Origin: Patescibacteria group bacterium
Lineage (GTDB): Bacteria > Patescibacteriota > Patescibacteriia > UBA11705 > JABHMO01
Direction of reading: 5' to 3'
Assembly: GCA_018818405.1 (NCBI GenBank)
Contig: JAHIRY010000040.1
Coordinates: 1-45,508, forward strand
DNA length: 45,508 bases
Shown here piece by piece: positions 33,180 through 45,508 of this stretch (positions are counted from its first letter, which is position 1; the number at the start of each line of letters is the position of its first letter). The position numbers were made by a program, and so were the translations under genes. A model generated the notes under the pieces. That model had not been told where the DNA came from. It did not search any database and saw only the letters and a program-made list of their open reading frames with translations.

Positions 33180-34325
33180 TCATTTACTGGGACGAACTAT
33201 TGTAATGACGATATGATCTTTCAAGCTGGGAATTCTTTTCACCCAGAACGGCGAAAGCGAAATTTTCACTGATTCGACGGAATCGAAATTCGCCAAATAC
33301 AATTCCACGCCTTTTGTGCTCAAGCCGGCGATTTTTTCCTTGTCGAAAATAGCATTGTCTTCCTTTATGATATTTTCTCCTTCAACATGCACTCGCACAT
33401 TGGCTGTCTTTGTATCAACATTGTAATTTTGAACATTGTAGGAAAAATTATTCATATTCAAACTCAACAACTGCTGGCCGTCCGGCACGATTGACTGCAA
33501 ACGACTGCCCGCAAGTTCGAGAATTTTCTCCTGATCCAGCGCAATGGCGGAAATTTTCAGTTTCATTTCAACCGTAAATTTATCCTTTACCGATTCCACC
33601 GGATCGGAAACATTTTCTGACACAACTTCTTTTGCCACAATGATTACCGCGTAATTTTTTCCGGAAACTTGCAGATTGAAATCTTCGAGCGCTTTTGCTT
33701 TCAAGTCTTCTTCCAATTTTTCTTTTGCGCGCGCGATGTCAGCGGCTTTTATCACGCTCACGGAAACGCCCGTGCTCTTCAAGACCGATTGGCTCTCCGC
33801 GTAAACCAGCGATTGCATGCTCTGAGACAATCCGGGAATAATGAAATTCGTTGCCGGCAATTCTTCAAATGAAGTCGGATCATCCGCGTAAACATCTGCT
33901 TCGACCTGTCCGTTGGCCGGAATATCCACGCGATCGGTCAGTCGCAATAAAACGCCGTTCGGATCCAGCAGTCTGGTGGTTTTTACCAGCGCTTGGCTGT
34001 CCCCTCTTTTATTGTAAACAATGACTTTTCCAATGGAATTTCCTGAAAGTCCTTTTGAACCGGTGGCTGTTTCCTCGAGCGAGCCGTCAACCTCTGTTTC
34101 CATCAATTTCGCCTGTAGCGAACCGGATCCGCCTCCGCCGTCAGCCTCCACGTCAGCGACAAATTCGGTTTCAAGCTTCGTCACGCGCGGAGTCACTTCG
34201 ATCACCGCTTTGCTCGCTGAAAAATAAAAAATTATTACAACCAACAAAACCGTGATAACGACAAAACCCAATATCATTTTTTTATAGCCCTCGCTCACGC
34301 CAGGGTGATTGCTTCGTATATACAT
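33180..34325 (-). CDS. Baseplate J-like domain membrane-anchored protein (common in CPR)
   Basis: N-terminal TM; GKVIVYN...Q.LVKTTRL, VYAD..., F.IPGL pattern. Confidence 0.6.
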   Translation of the reverse strand: MYIRSNHPGVSEGYKKMILGFVVITVLLVVIIFYFSASKAVIEVTPRVTKLETEFVADVEADGGGGSGSLQAKLMETEVDGSLEETATGSKGLSGNSIGKVIVYNKRGDSQALVKTTRLLDPNGVLLRLTDRVDIPANGQVEADVYADDPTSFEELPATNFIIPGLSQSMQSLVYAESQSVLKSTGVSVSVIKAADIARAKEKLEEDLKAKALEDFNLQVSGKNYAVIIVAKEVVSENVSDPVESVKDKFTVEMKLKISAIALDQEKILELAGSRLQSIVPDGQQLLSLNMNNFSYNVQNYNVDTKTANVRVHVEGENIIKEDNAIFDKEKIAGLSTKGVELYLANFDSVESVKISLSPFWVKRIPSLKDHIVITIVRPSK

Positions 34326-34465
34326 AAGTTAATGTTTTTATTTTTACTCATTTTTAATTTTATCAAAAAACAATGAAAAACAAAAGCGGAAAGATTGAAT
34401 CGCGTTGAAACCGGATGAAAGTCTGTTAATAACTTTGTTAAATAAAAATTCCGTTTGGCAGAGAT

Positions 34466-35278
34466 TCACAGCGGACTTTTTATATTTCGCAAAGCCATGT
34501 TGGTCAGATGCGTGTAAATTTGCGTTGTTCGGATATTTTGATGGCCGAGGAGTTCCTGCACATAGCGCACGTCCACTCCGTTTTCCAGGAGATGCGTGGC
34601 AAAGCTGTGGCGCAAAGAATGAAAAGTTGCTGATTTCCCAACTTTTGCTTTCTTCAATGCATTCTCAAAAATTTTCTGCGCGGTTCTCTCGGTCAATCTG
34701 CCGCCGCGCTCGCTTTCCAGTAAAAATTCATCAAAATCACGACAGCCAATCATTTTTATCAGGTCATCTTTCAGTTTTTCCGGAATTACTGAAATTCGAT
34801 CTTTTCCTCCTTTCGATTGTCTGATCGCAATTTGCAAATGAACGCAATCGATGTCTTTTATTTTTAATTTTACAATTTCCGAAACACGAAGTCCCGAGCC
34901 ATAAGCAAGCGCAATAAGCATCCGATGTTTATTATTTCTGATGGAAGCAAGAATTACGGCAATCTCTTCTCGAGAAAAAATTACGGGCAAGCGTTTCGGT
35001 TTGCGCGCATATTTCAAATTAATGCAAAACGGCGCTTTTACTATATTCTCATAAAAAAACTTGATTGCATTCAATCGCACATTAACGGTTTGACCGGAAA
35101 TGCCGCGTTCCAACAAACCCGCCAAATACTTTTTCGTCTTGTATTCATCGAATTTTTCAAAATCACAACCCAAATATCTGAAATAATCCTCAATACAACT
35201 CAAATAACTTTTCACAGTACTCCGGCTGTAATTTCGATACTTCAATTCAATTTCCATTTTCTCAATCCATTGTTGCAT
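34466..35278 (-). CDS. Tyrosine recombinase, IntI-like but lacking the IntI-specific insertion
   Basis: YSxxT..Y SAM-like N-domain, PKRLPV, GLRVSE, KGGKDR, HSLRHSFATHLL, LLGH, TQIYTH; only about 20 aa between the KDR strand region and the pre-HxLRH helix. Confidence 0.93.
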   Translation of the reverse strand: MQQWIEKMEIELKYRNYSRSTVKSYLSCIEDYFRYLGCDFEKFDEYKTKKYLAGLLERGISGQTVNVRLNAIKFFYENIVKAPFCINLKYARKPKRLPVIFSREEIAVILASIRNNKHRMLIALAYGSGLRVSEIVKLKIKDIDCVHLQIAIRQSKGGKDRISVIPEKLKDDLIKMIGCRDFDEFLLESERGGRLTERTAQKIFENALKKAKVGKSATFHSLRHSFATHLLENGVDVRYVQELLGHQNIRTTQIYTHLTNMALRNIKSPL

Positions 35279-35301
35279 AGAACCCCTCCCTTTGTTATAA
35301 T
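35273..35301 (+). promoter_or_regulatory. Pc-like cassette promoter overlapping the recombinase start codon and SD
   Basis: TTGCAT-N17-TATAAT with extended TG. Confidence 0.75.
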
Positions 35302-35313
35302 TATCTTAATCAA

Positions 35314-35322
35314 ATTATAACA
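35314..35322 (-). promoter_or_regulatory. Pint-like extended -10 promoter for the recombinase
   Basis: TGTTATAAT on the minus strand; SD GGGAGGGG before ATG. Confidence 0.6.
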
Positions 35323-35362
35323 TAAATCATAACACAATTCGTTTTAGCTACCAATTATTGCA

Positions 35363-35401
35363 TCTTATACGAAAACATTTCGCATAAGAACGAGTTATAT
35401 G
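35363..35401 (+). other. attI-like primary recombination site
   Basis: Hairpin TCTTATACGAAA-ACA-TTTCGCATAAGA, then ACGA and core GTTATATG; CGCATA box shared with attC right arms. Confidence 0.7.
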
Positions 35402-35622
35402 AAATACATGTTTTCCTTTTGGGGCTATCGCCCCAGCTCTTAAAAAGAATCCGATTTTGTTTTTCTTTTATTATAGAGGGGAAATATGGAGTTTTCTTCG
35501 CTACGCTACGAAAACATTTATTTTATAAGGGGAATAAGCGGTATTTCCTCCGCTTCGCTCCGGAAACGGTTTATTTATTAGGGGAAAACGAATACAATAA
35601 CATTTGTTAAAACATAATAACT

Positions 35623-38214
35623 ATGGCAAACGATAAAGAAGCAAAAGCGCGAATAAAAATTAATAAACTCCTTGAGGATTCAGGGTGGCGTTTTGATGAT
35701 TCTAAAAATGGAAAAGCCAACATCCAACTTGAGGCTGGCGTAAAATTCAATGAACTCGATGAAAATTTAGAAAACGCCGTAACCAGCGATGGTCGTCGCG
35801 GAGCAATTGATTTTCTCTTACTTGATAAAGACGGACGCGCGCTTGTCGTATTAGAAGCAAAAAAAGAATCAATTGATCCACTTTCCGCAAAAGAACAAGC
35901 TAGAAATTATGCACGCAACGTCAATGCACGTTTTGTAATTCTTTCAAACGGCAATATTCATTATTTTTGGGACACTAAACATGGCAATCCGGAAGTGATT
36001 TCTAGATTTCCTACCCAAGATTCAATTACTCAATTCGAAAAATGGGAACCAAATCCAAAAGAATTGGCCGAAACAAAAGTAGATGAAAATTATATTATTG
36101 AATCCCAAATGCCGGGATTTGCCAACGATCCAACTTTTCAAAATACCGACACACGAGGAGAATTTCTAAAAAACAACAATTTAAAACAACTCCGACCTTA
36201 TCAAGTAAACGCAATAAAAAGCCTTCAAACTTCGGCGCAATCAGGACAGAATCGCTTTTTGTTTGAAATGGCAACAGGCACAGGCAAAACCCTTATTTCC
36301 GCCGCCGTCATCAAGTTATTTCTCAAATCAGGCAATGCGCGCAGAGTTTTGTTTTTAGTAGATCGTCTTGAACTTGAAGATCAAGCATTTAAGGCATTTA
36401 GAAACTATTTGGGGCATGATTATGGAACTGTAATTTACAAAGATTCTCACGATTCTTGGCAGAACGCACAAATTGTCGTTTCCACAATTCAGACATTTCT
36501 TGCCGGAGACAGATACAAAAAAGATTTTTCGCCAACCGATTTTGAATTTGTTATTTCCGATGAAGCCCATCGTTCAATTGGAGGAAACAGTCGTGCCGTA
36601 TTTGAATATTTTGTCGGCTATAAATTGGGATTAACCGCTACTCCAAAAGATTATCTAAGAGGATTTGACGGAGAAAATGGCGACACTCAAAGAGAATTTG
36701 AAAGAAGGCAACTTCTCGATACTTACAAAACTTTTGGCTGTGAATCAGGCGAACCAACTTTTCGCTATGATCTTGTCGCCGGAGTAAATGATGGATTTTT
36801 GATCAATCCGATTGTGGTAGACGCACGGACAGAGATAACCACTGATTTGCTTTCCGACGAAGGATTGGCAGTTCACAAAACAAATGAAAATGGCGAATCA
36901 ACTGATGACATTTTCAACGAACGGCATTATGAGCGTAAATTTTTCAACGAGGAAACCAACATCGCCATGTGTAAGGCGTTTATGGATAATGCGCTTTTTG
37001 ATCCAATGGCAAAAAAACGAGGCATTGAATTGTTTGGCAAATCAATTGTTTTCTGTGTTTCTCAAAGGCATGCTGCCAAAATTACCAATATTCTCAACAA
37101 ACTAGCTTTTGAGAAATGGCCAGATCAATACAATGAATCAGATTTTGCCGTTCAAGTTACTTCTCTAGTACAAAACGCCCAGCAAATGACTATAAATTTT
37201 GCCAATAACATGCTTTCAGGCAAGGTACGACAACCCGAAGGCTATGATTCCAGTAAGACCAGAATTGCTGTAACTGTGGGGATGATGACTACTGGCTATG
37301 ATTGCCAGGATATTTTAAATCTTGCTTTGATGCGCCCTGTTTTTTCTCCGGCTGATTTTGTGCAAATCAAAGGGCGTGGCACTCGCAAATATACTTTTGA
37401 ATATGAAGATTATAATTCGGACGAAACTATCGCAGAACCAAAAGAACATTTTAAATTTTTCGATTTCTTTGCAACCTGCGAATACTTTGAAAATGAGTTT
37501 CCTTATGATGAAAAAATTAAACTCCCTGTAGTAAAACAAATTAAATCCGTTGAAGATATTGTTAAAAACCAAGCTAAACAAGGCGAGTTTGTCGATGAAA
37601 ACGGAAACAAAATTTTCAAAGGTCCAATTGACTTGGCAGAAAGCGACGAAGTGGCATCAATAACAGAAACACCGGTCGGAGTAGAAGGTATGCGAATTGA
37701 CCGCGAAGGATTCAAGAGAGCGGTAGAAGAAGATATACGCGGAAACGAAACCCTCAAAAACCTTTGGGAAAATGGCGATACTGAAGAAGCCGAAGATTTT
37801 GCTAAAAAACATGTACTTGATAAACCAAAATATTTTCTCAATCTTGATAAAATTCGTAAAATTTTCAATGTTGATCGTCGAATTAGCGTCAAAGAATTTT
37901 TGCAGGTTGCCTTTGGTGACAAAGATACCTTTGAAATGAAAGATGATTTATTGGAATCAGAATGGGATAAATTTCAAGAAGTAAATTTCAATAATCAGGA
38001 AATTGAAACAGAAAAATATCAAGCGATAAAAATGTTTTTCAAAGCGTATATCGTAGACGAAGAAGTCCGCGATATTATTAAACGAAACCAGCCGGCGGAC
38101 TTTTATCACTGTGCTTCATTTGATTTTTCCGAATATCAAAGACTAAATGGCTTTAAAGAACTCGTGCCAAGATACATCAAAGATTATGTATCACTTAATA
38201 CTTTTATGAATTAG
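35623..38214 (+). CDS. hsdR: Type I restriction enzyme R subunit
   Basis: D...EAK nuclease motif, ATGTGKT, DEAHRS, LTATP, MMTTGYD, QIKGRGTR. Confidence 0.93.
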   Translation: MANDKEAKARIKINKLLEDSGWRFDDSKNGKANIQLEAGVKFNELDENLENAVTSDGRRGAIDFLLLDKDGRALVVLEAKKESIDPLSAKEQARNYARNVNARFVILSNGNIHYFWDTKHGNPEVISRFPTQDSITQFEKWEPNPKELAETKVDENYIIESQMPGFANDPTFQNTDTRGEFLKNNNLKQLRPYQVNAIKSLQTSAQSGQNRFLFEMATGTGKTLISAAVIKLFLKSGNARRVLFLVDRLELEDQAFKAFRNYLGHDYGTVIYKDSHDSWQNAQIVVSTIQTFLAGDRYKKDFSPTDFEFVISDEAHRSIGGNSRAVFEYFVGYKLGLTATPKDYLRGFDGENGDTQREFERRQLLDTYKTFGCESGEPTFRYDLVAGVNDGFLINPIVVDARTEITTDLLSDEGLAVHKTNENGESTDDIFNERHYERKFFNEETNIAMCKAFMDNALFDPMAKKRGIELFGKSIVFCVSQRHAAKITNILNKLAFEKWPDQYNESDFAVQVTSLVQNAQQMTINFANNMLSGKVRQPEGYDSSKTRIAVTVGMMTTGYDCQDILNLALMRPVFSPADFVQIKGRGTRKYTFEYEDYNSDETIAEPKEHFKFFDFFATCEYFENEFPYDEKIKLPVVKQIKSVEDIVKNQAKQGEFVDENGNKIFKGPIDLAESDEVASITETPVGVEGMRIDREGFKRAVEEDIRGNETLKNLWENGDTEEAEDFAKKHVLDKPKYFLNLDKIRKIFNVDRRISVKEFLQVAFGDKDTFEMKDDLLESEWDKFQEVNFNNQEIETEKYQAIKMFFKAYIVDEEVRDIIKRNQPADFYHCASFDFSEYQRLNGFKELVPRYIKDYVSLNTFMN

Positions 38215-38216
38215 AC

Positions 38217-38474
38217 ATGTCTAAAAATAAAAAAAAACAAACAATCGGATTTTGGGATAAGGGAAAAGAAACAACACTTATTAATTGTTCTAGCGAAGGT
38301 TTTGATATTGGCCTAAAGTCAGAGGGTGAAGGGCTACTGGCTAAAAATTTTAAATCGCTAGGTAATACTACAAATTCTGATTGGTATGAAAAATGGTGGA
38401 TGAAATATATTATTTTTCCTCTTGCTGTACTAATCATTGGAGCTTTTGTTATTTTTTATATTGGATTAAATTAA
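38217..38474 (+). CDS. Small protein with C-terminal TM helix within the R-M operon
   Basis: 85 aa; 2 nt after hsdR stop and 4 nt before hsdM start; WWMKYIIFPLAVLIIGAFVIFYIG. Confidence 0.7.
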   Translation: MSKNKKKQTIGFWDKGKETTLINCSSEGFDIGLKSEGEGLLAKNFKSLGNTTNSDWYEKWWMKYIIFPLAVLIIGAFVIFYIGLN

Positions 38475-38478
38475 AACT

Positions 38479-40980
38479 ATGCTTACATCAGAAACAAAAC
38501 GACATATTGATGCGGCTAGGCAAGTCCTCGTGGGCGTAGTGCCAAACCCAACATCACAAATTGATCAGATTACCAACGCGCTGATCTATAAATTTATGGA
38601 TGACATGGATCAATCGGCTATAAAAGCCGGTGGCTCACCATCTTTTTTTACTGATGATTTGGAAAGATATGCTTGGACACGCCTGATGGATAGCAGACTT
38701 GGCAATCAAGAAAGAATGAATCTGTATTCAGAAGCTCTGATTAAATTTTCGCAAGCTAAACAATTACCCGAACTTTTTAGAAATATTTTTAAATCCGCAT
38801 TTTTGCCATATCGCTCACCGGAAGTTTTAGGATTATTTTTAAAAGAAATAAATTATTTTGATTATTCTCACCCAGAAGATTTGGGCGATGGCTATGAATA
38901 TTTGCTTTCAATCATGTCCTCTCAAGGCGATGCAGGACAATTCCGCACCCCTCGCCATATTATTGATTTTATCGTTGATGCTATCAACCCGACAAAAGAC
39001 GACAAAGTACTTGATCCTGCTTGCGGAACAGGTGGATTCTTGGTCAGCTCATACAAGCATATATTAGAACAACACGACGGCAAAAATGATCCGGAAAAGA
39101 AAGAAAAACCGCTCACCCCAGATGACAGAAGAAAACTTTTTCAAAACTTTGAAGGATATGATATCGATCCAGGCATGGTGCGAATTGCGCAGGTCAATAT
39201 GTATCTGCATCAATTCAAAAATCCGAAAATTTTTCAATACGACACTTTGGGAATGGATGAACGCTGGAATGACAAGTTTGATGTAATACTCGCCAATCCG
39301 CCGTTTATGTCGCCAAAAGGTGGTGTTCGTCCGCATAGTAAATTTAGCGTGCAGTCGAGCCGATCAGAGGTTTTGTTTGTGGACTACATCATGAACCACT
39401 TGAAACCCAAAGGCCGAGCAGGTGTAATCGTACCAGAAGGAATTATTTTTCAATCAGGAAGTGCGCACAAACAACTTCGCAAAAACCTCGTCAATGACGG
39501 GCTGTATGCAGTCGTGAGCTTGCCAAGTGGAGTGTTTCAGCCATACAGCGGTGTAAAAACCAGTATTTTGCTTTTTGATAATGAACAAGCGAAGCAACGA
39601 AGTGAGGTTTTGTTTGTAAAAGTGGAAAATGACGGCTTTGATCCGGGCGCAACAAAAAGACCTATTAGCAAAAACGATTTGCCGACTGCTTTGGATATTT
39701 TAGACAAATGGAAAACTGGCGAGAAAGTGGAAAGCAAGTTGGCGGTTTATGTAGAAAAATCCAAAATTGCTGAAAACGGAGACTACAATCTTTCCGGTGA
39801 TCGCTATCGTGTAGCAACAGATTACAGCAATGCAAAATGGCCGATGGTGGAGTTGGGAGAGGTTTCAGAAATATTAAACGGCTACGCTTTCAAGAGTGAA
39901 AAATACACAAACAATGGTATTCGAGTTATTCGAATTACAAATGTACAAAAAGGTAAAATTGTTGATGATGATCCTAAGTTTTACTCTGAAGATTCAATTA
40001 ACGAAATTGGGAAATTTTTACTCGCTAAAAGTGATCTTTTGATTTCTCTCACTGGTAATGTCGGTAGAGTTGGATTGTTACAATCTGACTTATTGCCAGC
40101 CGGACTGAATCAACGAGTTGGTTGTATTCGTCTAAATGACAGCAAACAAGTTTCAATCAGTTATCTTTTTCATGTATTGAATACAGAATTATTTGAAGAT
40201 GATTGTATAAGAGCTTCAAGTGGTGTTGCACAGAAAAATTTAAGTACAGAATGGTTGAAAAAATATCAAATTCCTGTCCCACCTCTCGAAATTCAAGAGC
40301 AAATTGTGGCCGAGTTGGACGGCTACGCAGGCATAATCTCCGGCGCCAAACAAATCTCCCAAAATTGGAAACCAAAAATTGACATCGATCCGGAGTGGGA
40401 GAAAGTGAAGCTGGGGGAAATTGCAACGCTTGTTCAAGGTATAAATACTGCGGTGGATAAGCTTCACTATATTGAAGATGGTATAAAGGTTTTGCAAGCA
40501 AATAATATTTATCAAGGATCTGTGAATTTTGATAATTTAAAATTTATAACTGCAAAAGAATTTTCAGCGATTAACACAAAATACAAACCCACGAAAGAAG
40601 ATGTTTTATATTCAAATATCGGTGCTAGATTTGGGTATGCTTCAACTATAGATTTTGATGATAAATTTACATTTTCCTGGAATGTTATGAGAATGGTTAT
40701 TTTAGATAAATCAAAACTAGACAAATTTTATCTAAAAAATATTCTTAATTCTGATTTACTTCGACAGGTTGTGCTAAGTCAAGCATCAACAAGTACGATG
40801 CCATTTATATCTGGAAAAGATTTGAAGGCAATCGAAATCCCTCTTCCACCTCTCGTTATTCAAAAGCAAATCGTGAAAAAAATCGAGGCCGAGCGCACGC
40901 TGGTGGAATCTGCCAAAAAGTTGATTGATATTTACGAAGAAAAAACAAAAGAAACGATTTCTAAACTGTGGAATGAATAA
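38479..40980 (+). CDS. hsdM-hsdS: Fused type I methyltransferase-specificity subunit (HsdM-HsdS)
   Basis: GQFRTP, DPACGTGG, NPPF (m6A); two target recognition domains closed by PPLEIQEQIV and PPLVIQKQIV. Confidence 0.92.
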   Translation: MLTSETKRHIDAARQVLVGVVPNPTSQIDQITNALIYKFMDDMDQSAIKAGGSPSFFTDDLERYAWTRLMDSRLGNQERMNLYSEALIKFSQAKQLPELFRNIFKSAFLPYRSPEVLGLFLKEINYFDYSHPEDLGDGYEYLLSIMSSQGDAGQFRTPRHIIDFIVDAINPTKDDKVLDPACGTGGFLVSSYKHILEQHDGKNDPEKKEKPLTPDDRRKLFQNFEGYDIDPGMVRIAQVNMYLHQFKNPKIFQYDTLGMDERWNDKFDVILANPPFMSPKGGVRPHSKFSVQSSRSEVLFVDYIMNHLKPKGRAGVIVPEGIIFQSGSAHKQLRKNLVNDGLYAVVSLPSGVFQPYSGVKTSILLFDNEQAKQRSEVLFVKVENDGFDPGATKRPISKNDLPTALDILDKWKTGEKVESKLAVYVEKSKIAENGDYNLSGDRYRVATDYSNAKWPMVELGEVSEILNGYAFKSEKYTNNGIRVIRITNVQKGKIVDDDPKFYSEDSINEIGKFLLAKSDLLISLTGNVGRVGLLQSDLLPAGLNQRVGCIRLNDSKQVSISYLFHVLNTELFEDDCIRASSGVAQKNLSTEWLKKYQIPVPPLEIQEQIVAELDGYAGIISGAKQISQNWKPKIDIDPEWEKVKLGEIATLVQGINTAVDKLHYIEDGIKVLQANNIYQGSVNFDNLKFITAKEFSAINTKYKPTKEDVLYSNIGARFGYASTIDFDDKFTFSWNVMRMVILDKSKLDKFYLKNILNSDLLRQVVLSQASTSTMPFISGKDLKAIEIPLPPLVIQKQIVKKIEAERTLVESAKKLIDIYEEKTKETISKLWNE

Positions 40981-40987
40981 ATAAATT

Positions 40988-42781
40988 ATGCCTCATATAA
41001 TCAAGCACAATTTACTGAAAAAAACTCTCGACGAAATCGCAGAGACTGCGCCGGATCATCTGACGATTTACCATCCGGACGAGAGCGATCAAGATGGCCA
41101 AATTCACAAATATTCTCGGACACAAATCCACCTTTTTTTAAGAGTCCATTTTGGATTATTAGACTTTAATATTGCCGAAGATCAGATTACTGACGGCACA
41201 GATGACGGTGGTCTGGATGCGTATCATATTGACGCAGAAAAGAAAACTATCTATCTTATACAATCAAAATATAAAACTACCCCGGAAGGATACCTTAACA
41301 ATGATGTCGATTGGCGCGAATTCTTTAAAATGGAGCTAGATCGTATTGTCCAAGGCGAAACGGCCTCGTCATCAGGTCACCAATATAATGGAAAAATAAG
41401 AGGTCTCCAACAAAAAATTGGAGAAATTGCTGATATAGCACGGTGGAACTATACACTGATATATTTAGGAAATGTCCCTTCTGCTATTACAAAAGAAAGG
41501 TTGTTAACTGTCAGCGGTGGAGTTTGCACAAACACAGAGATACTACACGGAAACGATTTCTATAACCAAGTTTTAATCCCATATCTTAAGCGTGACTTTT
41601 ACGACAAAGAAGACTTCTCCTTTGAGATATACATCAATCAAGAACGATCAGCAAATCGTATCAGATATTCCGTTGATTTAGCTGATGGCGAATCTGCGGA
41701 GGTCCAGCTTTGTTTTGTCCCAACAATGGAAATAGCAAGGATGATGTCGCAATACAGAAATTCGATTTTACAATACAATCCACGTTGTTATGTAGGTATC
41801 AAAAATACCGGTGTTAATGCTGACATCAGAGACTCAGTTTCTAACACGGCACATAATGAATTTTCATTACTTAACAATGGCATTACCGTTGTCTGCAATG
41901 AGGTAAATTACAACGATAATACTGCGCAACGAGGAAGAGCTTCAATTACTGTATCTAATCCACAGATAGTAAATGGCGGTCAAACAGCGTTTACTTTAGC
42001 ACATCTATTTGAGAATAATTCTGACAATTCAATTTTTGACGGAAAAGAAGTTCTCACAAAATTTATAATTATTGTAGGCAATCGAGATGAAATGATAGAA
42101 AAAATATCTAATGCTACCAATAATCAAAATCCAATAAGGCCAAGGGATAAAGCCTCAAATGATCTAAAAATGATTCAATTGCAGTCGGGCCTCTTTGATC
42201 AATATGGCGTTCTACTCGAAAGAAAGCAGGGAGAATTTTATGACTCGATAAAAGAGGGTCTTATAGACAAAAAAAATGTAATAGACAGCGTTATTCTTAT
42301 GCGTCTTTTGCTTGTATATCGTGGTTCAGTTGCAAGAGCAAGAAGTGCTGGAGAGGGTGTGCTTTTTAGAGATTACAACCTTGACGGAGTTGAAGTTAGC
42401 GAAATTTATAAGCTCATTCGAATTTACAATAAAATCTCTAATCTCGACCAACCTAGTGAAAGAGATGGACGAAAACGTTACCAAATTAATATCTGGGGTA
42501 ATGGACTTAGATACGGTCAATGGGCTATTATATATGCAGTTTATCAATTATCTAAATCCGGTGAAAATCTTAATGATTGTTTGAATCGTGTTCAATCACG
42601 ATGGATAGATTTCGAAACTACTGTTGCAAATCATGAACATAATCAAAGTTATTCTTCTGACGGCTTCGATTATGCAAACTATTATAAAGGAAGTACCATT
42701 GATCGAGATTTAAATGAATATATCCCTAATATAGGAGAATTAGTAGAATCAAAAACCGATGTGGAAATTCCGAAGATATAA
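40988..42781 (+). CDS. AIPR family (abortive infection phage resistance) protein
   Basis: DGTDDGGLDA...IQSKY nuclease-like N-terminus; NPRCYVG, LLNNGIT, PQIVNGGQT, ATNNQN. Confidence 0.88.
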   Translation: MPHIIKHNLLKKTLDEIAETAPDHLTIYHPDESDQDGQIHKYSRTQIHLFLRVHFGLLDFNIAEDQITDGTDDGGLDAYHIDAEKKTIYLIQSKYKTTPEGYLNNDVDWREFFKMELDRIVQGETASSSGHQYNGKIRGLQQKIGEIADIARWNYTLIYLGNVPSAITKERLLTVSGGVCTNTEILHGNDFYNQVLIPYLKRDFYDKEDFSFEIYINQERSANRIRYSVDLADGESAEVQLCFVPTMEIARMMSQYRNSILQYNPRCYVGIKNTGVNADIRDSVSNTAHNEFSLLNNGITVVCNEVNYNDNTAQRGRASITVSNPQIVNGGQTAFTLAHLFENNSDNSIFDGKEVLTKFIIIVGNRDEMIEKISNATNNQNPIRPRDKASNDLKMIQLQSGLFDQYGVLLERKQGEFYDSIKEGLIDKKNVIDSVILMRLLLVYRGSVARARSAGEGVLFRDYNLDGVEVSEIYKLIRIYNKISNLDQPSERDGRKRYQINIWGNGLRYGQWAIIYAVYQLSKSGENLNDCLNRVQSRWIDFETTVANHEHNQSYSSDGFDYANYYKGSTIDRDLNEYIPNIGELVESKTDVEIPKI

Positions 42782-42977
42782 AATAATAGTGTGTTTTCGG
42801 TCGGGGCAATTCACCCCTTTTCTTCCCCTCTTGCCCCTCCCTCAAACAGAAATAGGAGTTTTGGGCTTCGGGCATTCACCCCTAACCCCTCTGCCCTTCG
42901 CCCAAAACAGAAAAACAAAATCAGATTCTTTTTAAGAGCGATTTGCTATCGCAAATCAAAAGGAAAACATGTACATC

Positions 42978-43104
42978 ATATAACACTGCGTATGCGGTTA
43001 CGGCTTGCTCCGTACCTCCGCAAGCCTACACCCATATTTGCCAGTGGTAAGCACTTCGTGCAATTATACCACTGGCAAACATCGCATACGCAGGAACGTT
43101 AGCT
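42978..43104 (+). other. attC-like site 1 (127 bp)
   Basis: ATATAAC...GTTAGCT; arms CTGCGTATGCG/CGCATACGCAG. Confidence 0.85.
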
Positions 43105-43123
43105 GAAATTTTAAAATTTATTT

Positions 43124-43837
43124 ATGCCTGAAAAATATAATAATCCGTCGCCCCCAGAAAAAGAAAGTGGATTTTATAGCGACATCGTTCGGCGGTATGA
43201 AACAGAAGTAAATCGCTTTGTTCCAGGTTATGCTGAGGAAATTGTTCCTCTCGTAACTGGTGAAGTAATCAGAAAAGCTCATAACGGAGCTGTTTTAGAC
43301 CTTGGCTCTGGCGTAGGGAATGTAGATGAAATCATTATAGATCAAGCAAACCCTCAATCCATTGACTTAGTTGAAATTTTAGAGCCAATGATTGAAGAAT
43401 CTAAAAAGCGATTGGAAGATAAAAATTCCACCATTCGTTTTCATGAGATGTCCGCTGAAGATTTTGAAGCCGAACCAAATAGTTTTAATGCAGTACTGTC
43501 AAACCTTGTTATTCACAATATCCCTTATGAAGACAAAGTTAGACTTATAAGCAATATTCATAAGTGGCTTAAAGATGGTGGAATTTTTATCTGGACTGAT
43601 CTTGTGAGCTTTTCTGATACCGCCGAACTCGAAAGATGTTTTGAAGAGCGTAAAAAAATAGCCATTTCGATGGGGGCGACTGAGGAATTCGCAGAAGAGA
43701 ATTTTAAAAAGGAACGAGAAGAAGATAATATGATTACCGTTGAACAAATGACTGAAATGCTACAACAAGCTGGTTTTCAAAATATTGAAATTCTCTGGAC
43801 TCGGTACAATGAAGTGGTCATGCGAGCAACGAAATAA
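43124..43837 (+). CDS. Class I SAM-dependent methyltransferase (loosely CmoA-like), cassette 2
   Basis: VLDLGSGVG motif I, NLVIHN, LKDGGIF. Confidence 0.85.
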   Translation: MPEKYNNPSPPEKESGFYSDIVRRYETEVNRFVPGYAEEIVPLVTGEVIRKAHNGAVLDLGSGVGNVDEIIIDQANPQSIDLVEILEPMIEESKKRLEDKNSTIRFHEMSAEDFEAEPNSFNAVLSNLVIHNIPYEDKVRLISNIHKWLKDGGIFIWTDLVSFSDTAELERCFEERKKIAISMGATEEFAEENFKKEREEDNMITVEQMTEMLQQAGFQNIEILWTRYNEVVMRATK

Positions 43838-43850
43838 ATTTTAAAACATC

Positions 43851-43926
43851 AGCTAACATTGAATATCTGGTTCCGCTTCGCTCCACCCAAATTGCTCGCA
43901 ACTTCAGATATCCAGAAACGTTGTAC
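43851..43926 (+). other. attC-like site 2 (76 bp)
   Basis: AGCTAAC...GTTGTAC; arms TTGAATATCTG/CAGATATCCAG. Confidence 0.85.
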
Positions 43927-44174
43927 GAAATTCCAACTAGTAAACGAGGTAGATTGAAAGTTTGTGCAAACAAAAAAGCACGTCTTAAAAACGAACTTTT
44001 AACTGATTACCCGTCGGAACTGTCGTACAACACCGAGTATGCGGTTGCGTGAAGAAGAAATTATTGATTTTTCTTTTCATTTTAAATCTGGCTCTTTTCA
44101 ATTTTTTCTATCAGAAAGTGAAGCGCCCTGCCCGAGATGTCTCGAACAGGGCGTGATCTATGACATGAAGGAAG

Positions 44175-44549
44175 CTACGGACCCTCGAACATGATCCGCC
44201 TGCCAACCGCCCGATTGTATGCGCTGTCCTCTCCCGTCAAATCCTTTGACGTATTGTTACCCATTGCGAAAATGGTTGCGAACAGATCTGACACCATCGG
44301 GCGATCAATGCTGTCAAGTGCCAGAAGCGCTGTAAACACTGAACTGACTGGATCAGAACTCCCTGTTGCATTGTCGAGGTTGTGAGTCGAGAACTCTCTG
44401 TGAGACACCACGTATCCACCATCAGGGTTATAGCTCTTGAGCCACGCTTCCCTGTCTTTGATGAAAAGTGCTGCATCATCACCACTCAGAAGATGCCAAG
44501 AGGTTGCCAGTTCGGCACCCTCAGCGACACGCACGAAAACATGCTTCAT
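44175..44549 (-). CDS. Hypothetical 124-aa protein inside attC3, antisense to the array
   Basis: AGGAGG SD 7 nt before ATG; own promoter; hairpin 44124-44153 after the stop. Confidence 0.7.
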   Translation of the reverse strand: MKHVFVRVAEGAELATSWHLLSGDDAALFIKDREAWLKSYNPDGGYVVSHREFSTHNLDNATGSSDPVSSVFTALLALDSIDRPMVSDLFATIFAMGNNTSKDLTGEDSAYNRAVGRRIMFEGP

Positions 44550-44589
44550 GTTTTACCCTCCTAAATTCGTCGCGGAATTGCGACTTCAT

Positions 44590-44619
44590 ATATTAGCAGA
44601 TCCACACCCCACCTGTCAA
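44590..44619 (-). promoter_or_regulatory. Promoter of the attC-embedded gene
   Basis: TTGACA-N18-TAATAT with extended TG. Confidence 0.65.
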
Positions 44620-44879
44620 GCCAACGAGGGACGAAAAAATTGAAAAGAGCCCTAAATTAAGGAAAAAAATCAATAATTTCTTCTTCACTCCACCCAAATC
44701 CCGCTCTTGAAATTGAGGGTTTTAAGGGGTAAAATAGGTTGGTGTTGAAGCGAAAGTTTGTACTAAAAACGAAGGGCGGGACTTCGCATACTCGGGGACG
44801 TTAAACGTAATCAGTAAAGTGGCTATAAAGTGGAAGTCGTTCCGATAACTTTTTTAATTAGTATCATTTTTTAATTAAC

Positions 44880-45506
44880 ATGACTCAAATCGTAGAAACT
44901 TGCAAATTCGTTGTTGATAATTCTCAACACGTAAAAATAAACTTGGAAAAGGTTGATGAGTTTGTCAATTATTTTAGTCATTCCCATATCAAACATTGGT
45001 TTAATGAATCGCCCTTTAATATTAGAAATTTAGCCCCCAAAGAAAGATTGCATTTTTTATTGGTGTTTAATTCGATTAGTTTTTCTTATTGGGGAGATCC
45101 AAAATGGAGAATTAATTATCATTCCAAAGAAATAGATGGAGCCTATGGAATGATTGGAGCAATTGGCAGAGCAATTGAAAATAAGACTCCCATTTTGGAT
45201 GCAAAATTTCTTTCTGAGATTAAAGAAGAAGAGTTTAGTAAAATTTTAGAAGGAACTGTTCAAATTCCTCTTTTTGAAGATAGATTAAATATTTTGCGAG
45301 AAATTGGAACAATCCTCTTGGAAAAATTTGAAGGCGATTTTACTAACCTCATCAATCAAGCCAATGGCGATTCACAAAAATTATTGAGTTTGATAATTGA
45401 GAATTTTCCTTCTTTTAATGACTCCTCAATTTACAATGGAAGACAAGTTTATTTTTACAAGCGTGCACAACTTTTAGTTGCTGATGTTGTGCAAGCTTTC
45501 AACGGA
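44880..45506 (+). CDS. Queuosine salvage protein (Qng1/DUF2419 family), partial, cassette 4
   Basis: Not in ORF track; manual translation MTQIVETCKFVVDNSQHVKIN...FNSISFSYWG...IPLFEDR...FPSFNDSSIYNGRQVYFYKRAQLLVAD. Confidence 0.85.
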   Translation, partial: MTQIVETCKFVVDNSQHVKINLEKVDEFVNYFSHSHIKHWFNESPFNIRNLAPKERLHFLLVFNSISFSYWGDPKWRINYHSKEIDGAYGMIGAIGRAIENKTPILDAKFLSEIKEEEFSKILEGTVQIPLFEDRLNILREIGTILLEKFEGDFTNLINQANGDSQKLLSLIIENFPSFNDSSIYNGRQVYFYKRAQLLVADVVQAFNG

Positions 45507-45508
45507 CA

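Follow-up and report, generated by a model that had tools for sequence, protein, structure and literature searches.

The integron-like array

The stretch of DNA analyzed here (the window, 45,508 nucleotides) is contig JAHIRY010000040.1 of the assembly GCA_018818405.1 from a Patescibacteria group bacterium, and corresponds to contig C16 of the 1.06-Mb source genome (G000), which is assembled in 48 contigs. Among named organisms, its sequences come closest to metagenome-assembled genomes of Patescibacteria. It contains a complete integron-like array consisting of a short IntI/Xer-like recombinase, an attI-like site, and three cassettes with matched ends. The third cassette (43921-44800) is closed by a genuine attC-type recombination site (site 3, 44025-44806), whose first hairpin encloses a small antisense gene together with its own promoter and terminator, and the same loaded site recurs with unrelated genes in independent assemblies.

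The recombinase gene (34466-35278, minus strand) encodes a tyrosine recombinase of 270 aa and is transcribed divergently from the cassettes. Its best NCBIfam match is the integron integrase model TIGR02249 (223.8 bits, under the cut-off of 265) and its best match in the Protein Data Bank (PDB) is VchIntIA (2A3V, E 5e-43), an enzyme of 320 aa; both matches fall into two stretches. The split match and the shorter length are consistent with the absence of the IntI-specific extra domain, and the protein thus falls outside the classical definition of an IntI, which has this domain, passes the integron integrase model, and measures about 320 aa.

The attI-like site (cgcataagaacgaG|TTATATGA, 35381-35402, plus strand) opens the array, and its cassette start TTATATGA is complementary to the R'' box (TCATATAAC) of attC site 1. 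Complementarity between R'' and the first bases of the own cassette is a hallmark of integron cassettes and a relic of their circular form. This rule holds for all three cassettes, in which R'' is the reverse complement of the cassette start: the 7.7-kb cassette 1, with type I restriction genes and an AIPR gene, starts with TTATATGA and has the R'' box TCATATAA; cassette 2 (43101 onward), with a methyltransferase gene, starts with TTAGCTG and has CAGCTAA; and cassette 3, with the loaded attC site, starts with TTGTAC at 43921 and has GTACAA at 44025. The attC sites share a common architecture of R'', L'', GGTTNCG, hairpin 1, CCRCCCAAAT, hairpin 2, ACTTC, L', and AAC-GTT. A search of Rfam over positions 34000-45508 returned no relevant family.

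Anatomy and fold of site 3

The left arm of site 3 (44025-44049, plus strand) is composed of R'' (GTACAAC, 44025-44031), L'' (ACCGAGTATGCGG, 44032-44044), and the linker TTGCG, and the right arm (44781-44806, plus strand) of ACTT, L' (CGCATACTCGG, 44785-44795), the spacer GGAC, and R' (GTTAAAC, 44800-44806), with the crossover between G44800 and T44801. R'' deviates at a single position from the consensus RYYYAAC and the R' box reads GTTAAAC (consensus GTTRRRY), so that the cores are those of an attC site. The L boxes lie about 740 bp apart and are complementary at 11 of 11 positions, and the unpaired spacers between the R and L boxes are asymmetric (1 nt versus 4 nt), which likewise agrees with attC sites. 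The extrahelical bases that set strand choice are absent, as both the sequence and the predicted fold show the 11-bp L stem without a bulge; any strand asymmetry of site 3 would sit in the spacer and the hairpins, not in the L stem. Site 3 also departs from known attC sites in its length. These range from about 57 to 141 bp and have a short variable terminal structure, whereas site 3 measures 782 bp and holds a coding sequence of 375 nt inside its central structure.

Hairpin 1 is closed by a long inverted repeat, here called the clamp, with a left arm at 44049-44108 and a right arm at 44633-44688 (plus strand). The repeat search reported it as inverted repeats of 57 nt at 75% and of 42 nt at 74% identity, and once aligned it consists of one perfect helix of about 23 bp and another of about 20 bp, on either side of an asymmetric internal loop that is conserved. 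The boundaries of the clamp are exactly those that hairpin 1 has in its ordinary short form in sites 1 and 2 of the window, in site 1 of L009, in site a of L015, and on C23 (C numbers denote contigs of the source genome and L numbers loci elsewhere). The earlier note on this DNA had described the junction of the three-way fold as conserved, and it was indeed found intact (TCCACCCAAAT, 44689-44699, plus strand), as in sites 1 and 2; the motif is also present in short attC sites of the source genome and its relatives. The junction is followed by hairpin 2 (CCCGC...GCGGG, 44700-44780, plus strand), whose loop contains a sense promoter. In a fold of the bottom strand as single-stranded DNA, both the minimum free energy and the centroid structures retained the outer arms, hairpin 2, and the long clamp, as well as the terminator of the nested gene, with a z-score of -6.8 against 20 shuffled sequences. 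The GC content of the insert is about 50%, compared with about 33-38% in the flanks.

The nested antisense unit

A promoter, a Shine-Dalgarno sequence, an open reading frame (ORF), and a terminator had been proposed to form a complete antisense expression unit in the loop of the attC site, and each of these elements was recovered at, or within a few bases of, its proposed position. On the minus strand, the promoter (TTGACA-N18-TAATAT, 10 of 12 consensus matches, with TG ahead of the -10 box) runs from 44619 to 44590 and is followed by a hairpin in the 5' untranslated region (UTR; GTCGCAATTCCGCGAC, 44584-44569, read from the sequence) and by the Shine-Dalgarno sequence AGGAGG (44562-44557), seven bases ahead of the ATG at 44549. 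The ORF itself (44549-44175) encodes 124 aa with an isoelectric point of 5.0 and has no transmembrane segment, and an intrinsic terminator hairpin with a 13-pair stem lies behind it (44153-44124). Two further candidates within the cargo were rejected: a long ORF on the sense strand (start MNALPTEVW), which runs antisense to the nested gene, is closed in site 3 and agrees with chance expectation in GC-rich DNA, and inner GTT-like motifs beside the -35 box, considered as hidden crossover sites, are too degenerate.

Homologs of the 124-aa protein were found with 94% identity on L009, 69% on L061 and L066, 65% on L049, and 43-47% on L050 (protein P0009). In the deeper comparisons dN/dS is 0.21-0.30 at dS values of 0.6-1.0 (site 3 versus L061: dS about 1.0, dN/dS 0.21), and it follows from these ratios that the ORF is a real gene under purifying selection. 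The earlier note had seen no transposase or reverse transcriptase motif in it, which the lack of any Pfam or NCBIfam match bears out; PHROG, PADLOC, and a profile search of PDB sequences did not provide a match either, and AlphaFold2, run on an alignment of four sequences, gave a poor model (mean predicted local distance difference test score 50.7). A full HMMER search with the ORF returned 34 proteins, four of which are homologs of similar size (106-122 aa). Most of the remaining matches are long multidomain proteins, two of the four scanned being WD40-repeat proteins, and were discounted as effects of repeats and composition.

Homologs of the nested gene also occur outside attC sites as modules with their own promoter (L050 3001-3327 and L074 409-735, both plus strand). 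The module on L050, which includes a small hydrophobic ORF upstream, is GC-rich in an AT-rich locus (52% versus 37%) and has no flanking inverted repeat, which indicates that the clamp belongs to the site and not to the gene. No toxin-antitoxin signature was found for the single, small, acidic ORF without family match. The firmest statement on its product is that of a predicted small cytoplasmic protein that would be constitutively expressed, whereas a role in defence, counter-defence, or addiction, like the toxin, immunity, or defence gene suggested in the earlier note, would be a guess.

Layout of the loaded cassette

Cassette 3 is arranged inside out. The usual cargo position between the R' and R'' cores is filled by a gene-less structured leader of about 100 nt (43921-44024, plus strand), which begins at the crossover G|TTGTAC after attC site 2; as the leader is all that this position holds, the gene in the slot is the sole gene of the cassette. 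In the alifold consensus the two ends of the leader are base-paired (GTTGTACGA to TCGTACAAC, and TTCCGAC to GTCGGAA); this fold is weakly supported, because most of the pairs never vary. The layout differs among related cassettes: on L021 the outer segment measures only about 25 nt, and on L009 and L032 the same loaded attC site stands behind an ordinary sense gene, so that these cassettes carry two cargos.

The promoter in the loop of hairpin 2 (TTGAAA-N17-TAAAAT, 44707-44735, plus strand, 10 of 12 matches in the promoter scan) points out of the site toward the next cassette, which begins with TTAAAC and carries a Q_salvage gene (44880 onward). Among the 18 instances listed, its -35 box is invariant and its -10 box is identical in 17, and the 17-nt spacer varies; the copy on C1 has the same hexamers and spacing. 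The hairpin-2 and slot promoters stand back to back, with about 88 bp between their -35 boxes.

Recurrence of the loaded scaffold

Scans of a genome collection, based on the clamp and junction, and of metagenomes revealed the cassette of about 880 bp, with the gene-less leader, identical arms, clamp, junction, and hairpin 2, in more than 20 contigs. The same architecture in independent assemblies is more than chance would produce and also speaks against an assembly artifact. Within the source genome, a second copy lies on C1 (minus strand, 2712-2039), where the same leader and arms come directly after a second attI-like site. It differs in its clamp (GTGAAAGAGAAAAAGG...), which surrounds another GC-rich ORF, likewise antisense and 98 aa long. 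This ORF has a TTGACA promoter, a Shine-Dalgarno sequence, and a terminator of its own, and the unit is placed at the identical position GGTTGC|GTGAA...TTCAC|TCCACCCAAAT. A comparison of the site-3 and C1 clamps shows about 19 alignment columns in which both arms differ, and by these matched changes the pairing was kept. On L009, the site-3 unit (94% protein identity, see above) lies within the attC site of a different cassette (DUF5680), and on L015, in a genome of another family of the same order, the same leader, arms, clamp, and hairpin 2 surround an unrelated ORF of 68 aa.

The scan of the genome collection added L032, L042, and L039 to the site-3 type and that of the metagenomes a further 19 contigs; the site-3 arm itself occurs on C1, L009, L015, L032, L042, and L053-L070. 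Genes are nested in attC sites of other types as well, namely on L038 (different arms, a 10-bp clamp, and an antisense gene) and on L021 and L029 (a perfect 25-bp clamp and a sense-oriented DUF2584-like ORF). The distribution is sporadic, since, of the 401 genomes scanned in the class, only two, G000 itself and G017, have the pattern of leader plus arm. Viral contigs gave no match to the arm pattern.

The analysis covered 19 complete slots with the site-3 scaffold, or 17 without the two duplicates (L053 equals L015 and L054 equals L032), and every one carries its gene in antisense. A conserved -35 box, Shine-Dalgarno sequence, and terminator are present in each; the distance of the -35 box TTGACA from the clamp is nearly constant, since, counted from the outer end of the excerpt, it is 66-69 nt in 16 of the 19 slots, 74 nt in L015/L053, and 82 nt in L069. 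All-against-all BLASTP sorted the slot ORFs into twelve unrelated families, ten of which fall within the site-3 scaffold. The encoded proteins (63-124 aa) are hydrophilic and mostly acidic, and the slot ORFs other than that of site 3 have no match in Pfam, NCBIfam, PHROG, or PADLOC, except for a weak cupin match of the ORF on L065. Slots with different ORFs have types of promoter, UTR hairpin, and terminator in common, in a mosaic fashion: the UTR hairpin of site 3 recurs before other ORFs on L058, L062, and L042, and a near-identical terminator hairpin stands behind unrelated ORFs on L062 and L067, its outer stem being common to other types.

Two copies of the scaffold are decayed or rearranged. 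L056 (1765-1960, oriented) is a deletion derivative in which a short homology, ATTGAAA(A)G, joins the leader to the right arm of the clamp; R''/L'' and the cargo are gone, and the right arm has decayed. L060 (300-1020, oriented) carries a GC-rich, sense-oriented gene that has its own promoter, together with an inserted small repeat and a truncated right clamp arm, and is the sole case in the site-3 scaffold that is not antisense. Judging from these two copies, loss of the structure does occur, and the fact that it is usually intact is informative for this reason.

A promoter-bearing segment flanked by inverted repeats might be an invertible, phase-variable element that the tyrosine recombinase flips between the antisense and sense orientations, and the recombinase does have weaker matches to models of tyrosine-type DNA invertases. 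We give this explanation hardly any credence, as all 19 complete slots, as assembled, share one orientation relative to the asymmetric clamp and the only sense case is the rearranged L060. Moreover, with a promoter and a terminator inside the unit, flipping would not switch the gene on or off.

A passenger gene between long inverted repeats is also what a non-autonomous transposable element of the type of miniature inverted-repeat transposable elements (MITEs) or mobile insertion cassettes would look like, in this case with terminal inverted repeats of 57 bp and hairpin 1 of attC sites as its target, comparable to the targeting of attC by IS1111-attC elements and group IIC-attC introns. Such an element would account for two diverged versions (the site-3 and C1 types) at the identical position GGTTGC|GTGAA...TTCAC|TCCACC, for related clamp bases (TGAA plus purines) in sites with other arms (L038 and L021), and for both clamp arms changing together as transposon ends do. 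However, the insertion sequence (IS) or MITE remnant with a target duplication that the earlier note had asked about was looked for without success: the flanks read GGTTGC and TCCACC in site 3 and C1 without target-site duplication, no IS or MITE copies were found, and there is no transposase or reverse transcriptase motif. The 1.06-Mb genome holds only the self-match and a weak match to the diverged C1 site, and every copy elsewhere sits in this attC frame, though the searches were seeded with that frame. Furthermore, the arms and hairpin 2 that accompany the site-3-type clamp are always the same, it is the whole cassette that changes neighbors, the limits of the clamp are exactly those of a normal hairpin 1, and the homologous gene outside an attC site lacks such repeats. 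A transposable element is thus a distinctly unlikely explanation.

Conservation and movement of the loaded cassette

Identity to site 3 was compared segment by segment in ten instances. The arms are 95-100% identical, the left clamp arm 88-95%, the right clamp arm 75-100% (at least 89% in seven of the ten), and the segment of junction, hairpin 2, and L'/R' 82-87%. The leader follows with 68-93% in nine instances and 39% in L054, which has another leader. Inside the slot, identity falls to 29-70% in the promoter and UTR and to 40-74% in the region after the stop codon including the terminator, and the ORFs are either unrelated to that of site 3 or saturated at synonymous sites.

Loaded cassettes are found next to many different neighbors. 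At least ten different upstream joints (to attI or to various attC sites), most of them G|TTGTAC, and at least eight different downstream cassette starts were counted. The changes of neighbors involve the whole cassette, cut at the GTT core, and not a segment bounded by the clamp. One cargo (MSDESIRE..., 98-100% identical) occurs in three contexts, which are attI with the start TTAGGCG on L059, an attC site with TTAGGCG on L068, and attI with TTGTAC on L070, and this suggests that a loaded site has been recombined. L061 and L066 are exceptions to the G|TT joints, and L065 and L069 have ATT in place of GTT at the downstream end. On L061 and L066 the cassette starts with TTATATG instead of TTGTACG and R'' still reads GTACAAC. 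Possibly the exchange is not placed at G|TT in every case, or the core has undergone conversion, and the start could be a hint of a two-strand exchange like that of Xer recombinases.

The earlier view that the gene is accommodated by the site rather than disruptive to it is supported by these data, considering that the scaffold is mostly 82-100% identical where promoter/UTR and terminator range from 29 to 74%, that the ORFs are unrelated, and that there are many GTT-core joints. The same data bear on the opposite explanation of a dead attC site, into which a foreign GC-rich fragment landed by accident and whose remnant is carried passively. The foreign composition of the insert (about 50% GC versus 33-38%) and the decayed derivatives L056 and L060 are what one would expect from it. 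Nevertheless, we consider it very improbable, given that the arms are complementary at 11 of 11 positions with R''/R' and the junction intact, that the scaffold is conserved far above the cargo in more than 15 instances, that loaded cassettes with GTT-core joints occupy many array positions, and that the ORF is under purifying selection.

Interpretation

It is likely, judging from sequence comparison, that site 3 is a working recombination site of a mobile Patescibacteria cassette family of the integron type, in which the gene is placed inside the attC site instead of beside it. The recurrence of the scaffold together with the unrelated ORFs supports the view that hairpin 1 acts as a second cargo slot, and a slot with position-independent expression, as suggested in the earlier note, would fit the arrangement. 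The other cargos that the suggestion called for were found in numbers, with at least ten unrelated ORFs in the same hairpin; what did not stand is the idea of a normal cassette with an extra gene, because in cassette 3 the slot gene is alone.

In the proposed mechanism, the clamp would bring the distant halves of the attC site together in folded single-stranded DNA, and the short IntI/Xer-like recombinase would for this reason still be able to excise and insert the loaded cassette. Recombination as folded single-stranded DNA receives indirect support from the many GTT-core contexts and the stable predicted fold. The slot gene would be transcribed from its own promoter, whatever its distance to the promoter of the array, and the hairpin-2 promoter may restart transcription of the cassettes downstream. 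Recombination within the clamp arms, and within the semi-conserved flanks with the promoter and the terminator, could move modules from one cassette to another.

Several points weigh against this reading. The first entry of unrelated GC-rich ORFs into a similar promoter and terminator frame is left without explanation. The scaffold searches were seeded with the clamp and junction or with the arm and were thus blind to clamp-bearing elements outside attC sites, and the matched changes of the clamp come from two lineages, with co-evolving transposon ends being a source of the same signal. An empty copy of the exact site-3 scaffold was not found among the class genomes, the viral contigs, and the scaffold scans, the nearest to it being L011, which has the same arms and different hairpins. 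To these are added the decayed or rearranged copies L056 and L060.

A more far-reaching idea is that the clamp-closed loop is a natural frame for ORF capture, and thereby a route by which genes get linked to attC sites (cassette genesis); it is put forward tentatively and is unlikely to be right in this form. The fixed frame would consist of the arms, the clamp, the -35 box, the terminator tail, and the outward promoter, into which unrelated and mostly GC-richer modules, possibly of host or foreign origin, would recombine and then travel as cassettes. The negative supercoiling that arises between the back-to-back promoters on the two sides of the junction might also make it easier for the giant site to leave the duplex and fold.

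Relation to known systems

Site 3 resembles canonical attC sites and cassettes, especially long branched ones such as the Vibrio cholerae repeats, in its imperfect palindrome, its AAC...GTT cores, and its G|TT crossover, and the array resembles canonical integrons in the matched R'', the attI site and divergent IntI-like recombinase beside the cassettes, and a center that tolerates variation. It differs from them in a central structure of about 740 nt with a complete expression unit inside, in a three-way junction with a conserved motif, in an L stem without extrahelical bases, in a normal cargo position that holds only the leader of about 100 nt, and in a recombinase of 270 aa that stays under the IntI model cut-off. 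In known attC sites, the variable terminal structure ranges from 3 nt to a branched structure of 65 bp, and its replacement alters recombination about twofold or less (PMC2727003), which makes tolerance of a clamped insertion plausible.

Promoter-bearing cassettes, for example those with toxin-antitoxin genes, occur in sedentary chromosomal integrons with their genes between attC sites. They share with cassette 3 an expression that is independent of the distance to the array promoter, but the site-3 gene lies inside the attC site. Foreign DNA inside attC sites is also known from IS1111-attC elements and group IIC-attC introns; these disrupt the site and bring a gene for a DEDD transposase or a reverse transcriptase-maturase with them, whereas here no such gene is present, the frame is constant with a variable cargo, and the loaded site still appears mobile. 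Phage morons are units of promoter, ORF, and terminator with atypical composition, and the slot modules are similar in having a sigma-70-type promoter, one small ORF, an intrinsic terminator, and a deviant GC content. In contrast to morons, they sit in the hairpin of a recombination site of a cellular array, have no PHROG match, and show no arm pattern in viral contigs. Mobile insertion cassettes and MITEs likewise carry a passenger gene between inverted repeats without a transposase; the slot units differ from them in that no target duplication was found and that, in the searches made, they are neither multicopy nor seen outside the attC frame. A full-text literature search, evaluated by title and abstract, did not return a description of Patescibacteria integron arrays or of genes nested inside attC sites.

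Other features of the arrays

The attI-like site is present in three near-identical copies in the genome (window 35381-35396; C1, minus strand, 2833-2818; and C5, minus strand, 736-721). The recombinase gene adjoins only the copy in the window, and an RNase Y-like gene lies upstream of the copy on C1. Cassette 1 of the window (35395-43098) comprises hsdR, a small ORF, a fused hsdM/S gene, and the AIPR gene between matched ends; no internal attC site was noticed in it, without a systematic search. The methyltransferase cassette (43101 onward) also comes after the first cassette on C5.

A nested gene is found in hairpin 2 of another attC site on C23 (minus strand, 8325-7623), where a sense-oriented gene for a 199-aa protein similar to HEAT-repeat and DNA alkylation repair proteins sits between two copies of the palindrome GCGAGCTCGC. 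The same arms with a short hairpin 2 occur on C48 (minus strand, 38422-38331) and elsewhere on C23 (minus strand, 3377-3285). Several cassettes open with a conserved noncoding leader of about 150-200 nt, which consists of a GGGCTATCGCCC hairpin followed by repeats ending in TATAAGGGGAAAAC (window 35396-35620; C1, minus strand, 2035-1880; C23, minus strand, 2295-2140; and L039, 268-365, oriented). In addition, a hairpin repeat of about 60 nt (…GGGCATTCACCCC…CCCTC…AAAC) stands in two tandem copies directly before attC site 1 (window 42790-42930) and also occurs at C1 1-70 and in the rearranged slot of L060 (925-990, oriented); it looks like a miniature mobile repeat.

Significance

In the usual description, an integron cassette is a gene that lacks a promoter and has a short attC site behind it, and IntegronFinder by default drops attC candidates longer than about 200 bp. 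With this setting, sites like site 3 would be missed. The loaded cassettes would change the cassette model insofar as two cargo positions, or the inner one only, are possible, and they suggest that an attC-type site tolerates an insertion of about 640 nt when it is closed by a long clamp. The loaded sites, the sites with the same arms and short hairpins, and the clamps with matched changes also provide a natural set of constructs for investigating the folding limits on recombination.

For the integron field, these cassettes are relevant to how genes come to be linked with attC sites, a question that is still debated as open. For the ultra-small Patescibacteria, they strengthen the case for an as yet undescribed system that is integron-like and has a short recombinase, and they point to a pool of small orphan proteins, predicted to be constitutively expressed, beside a 7.7-kb restriction/abortive-infection cassette.

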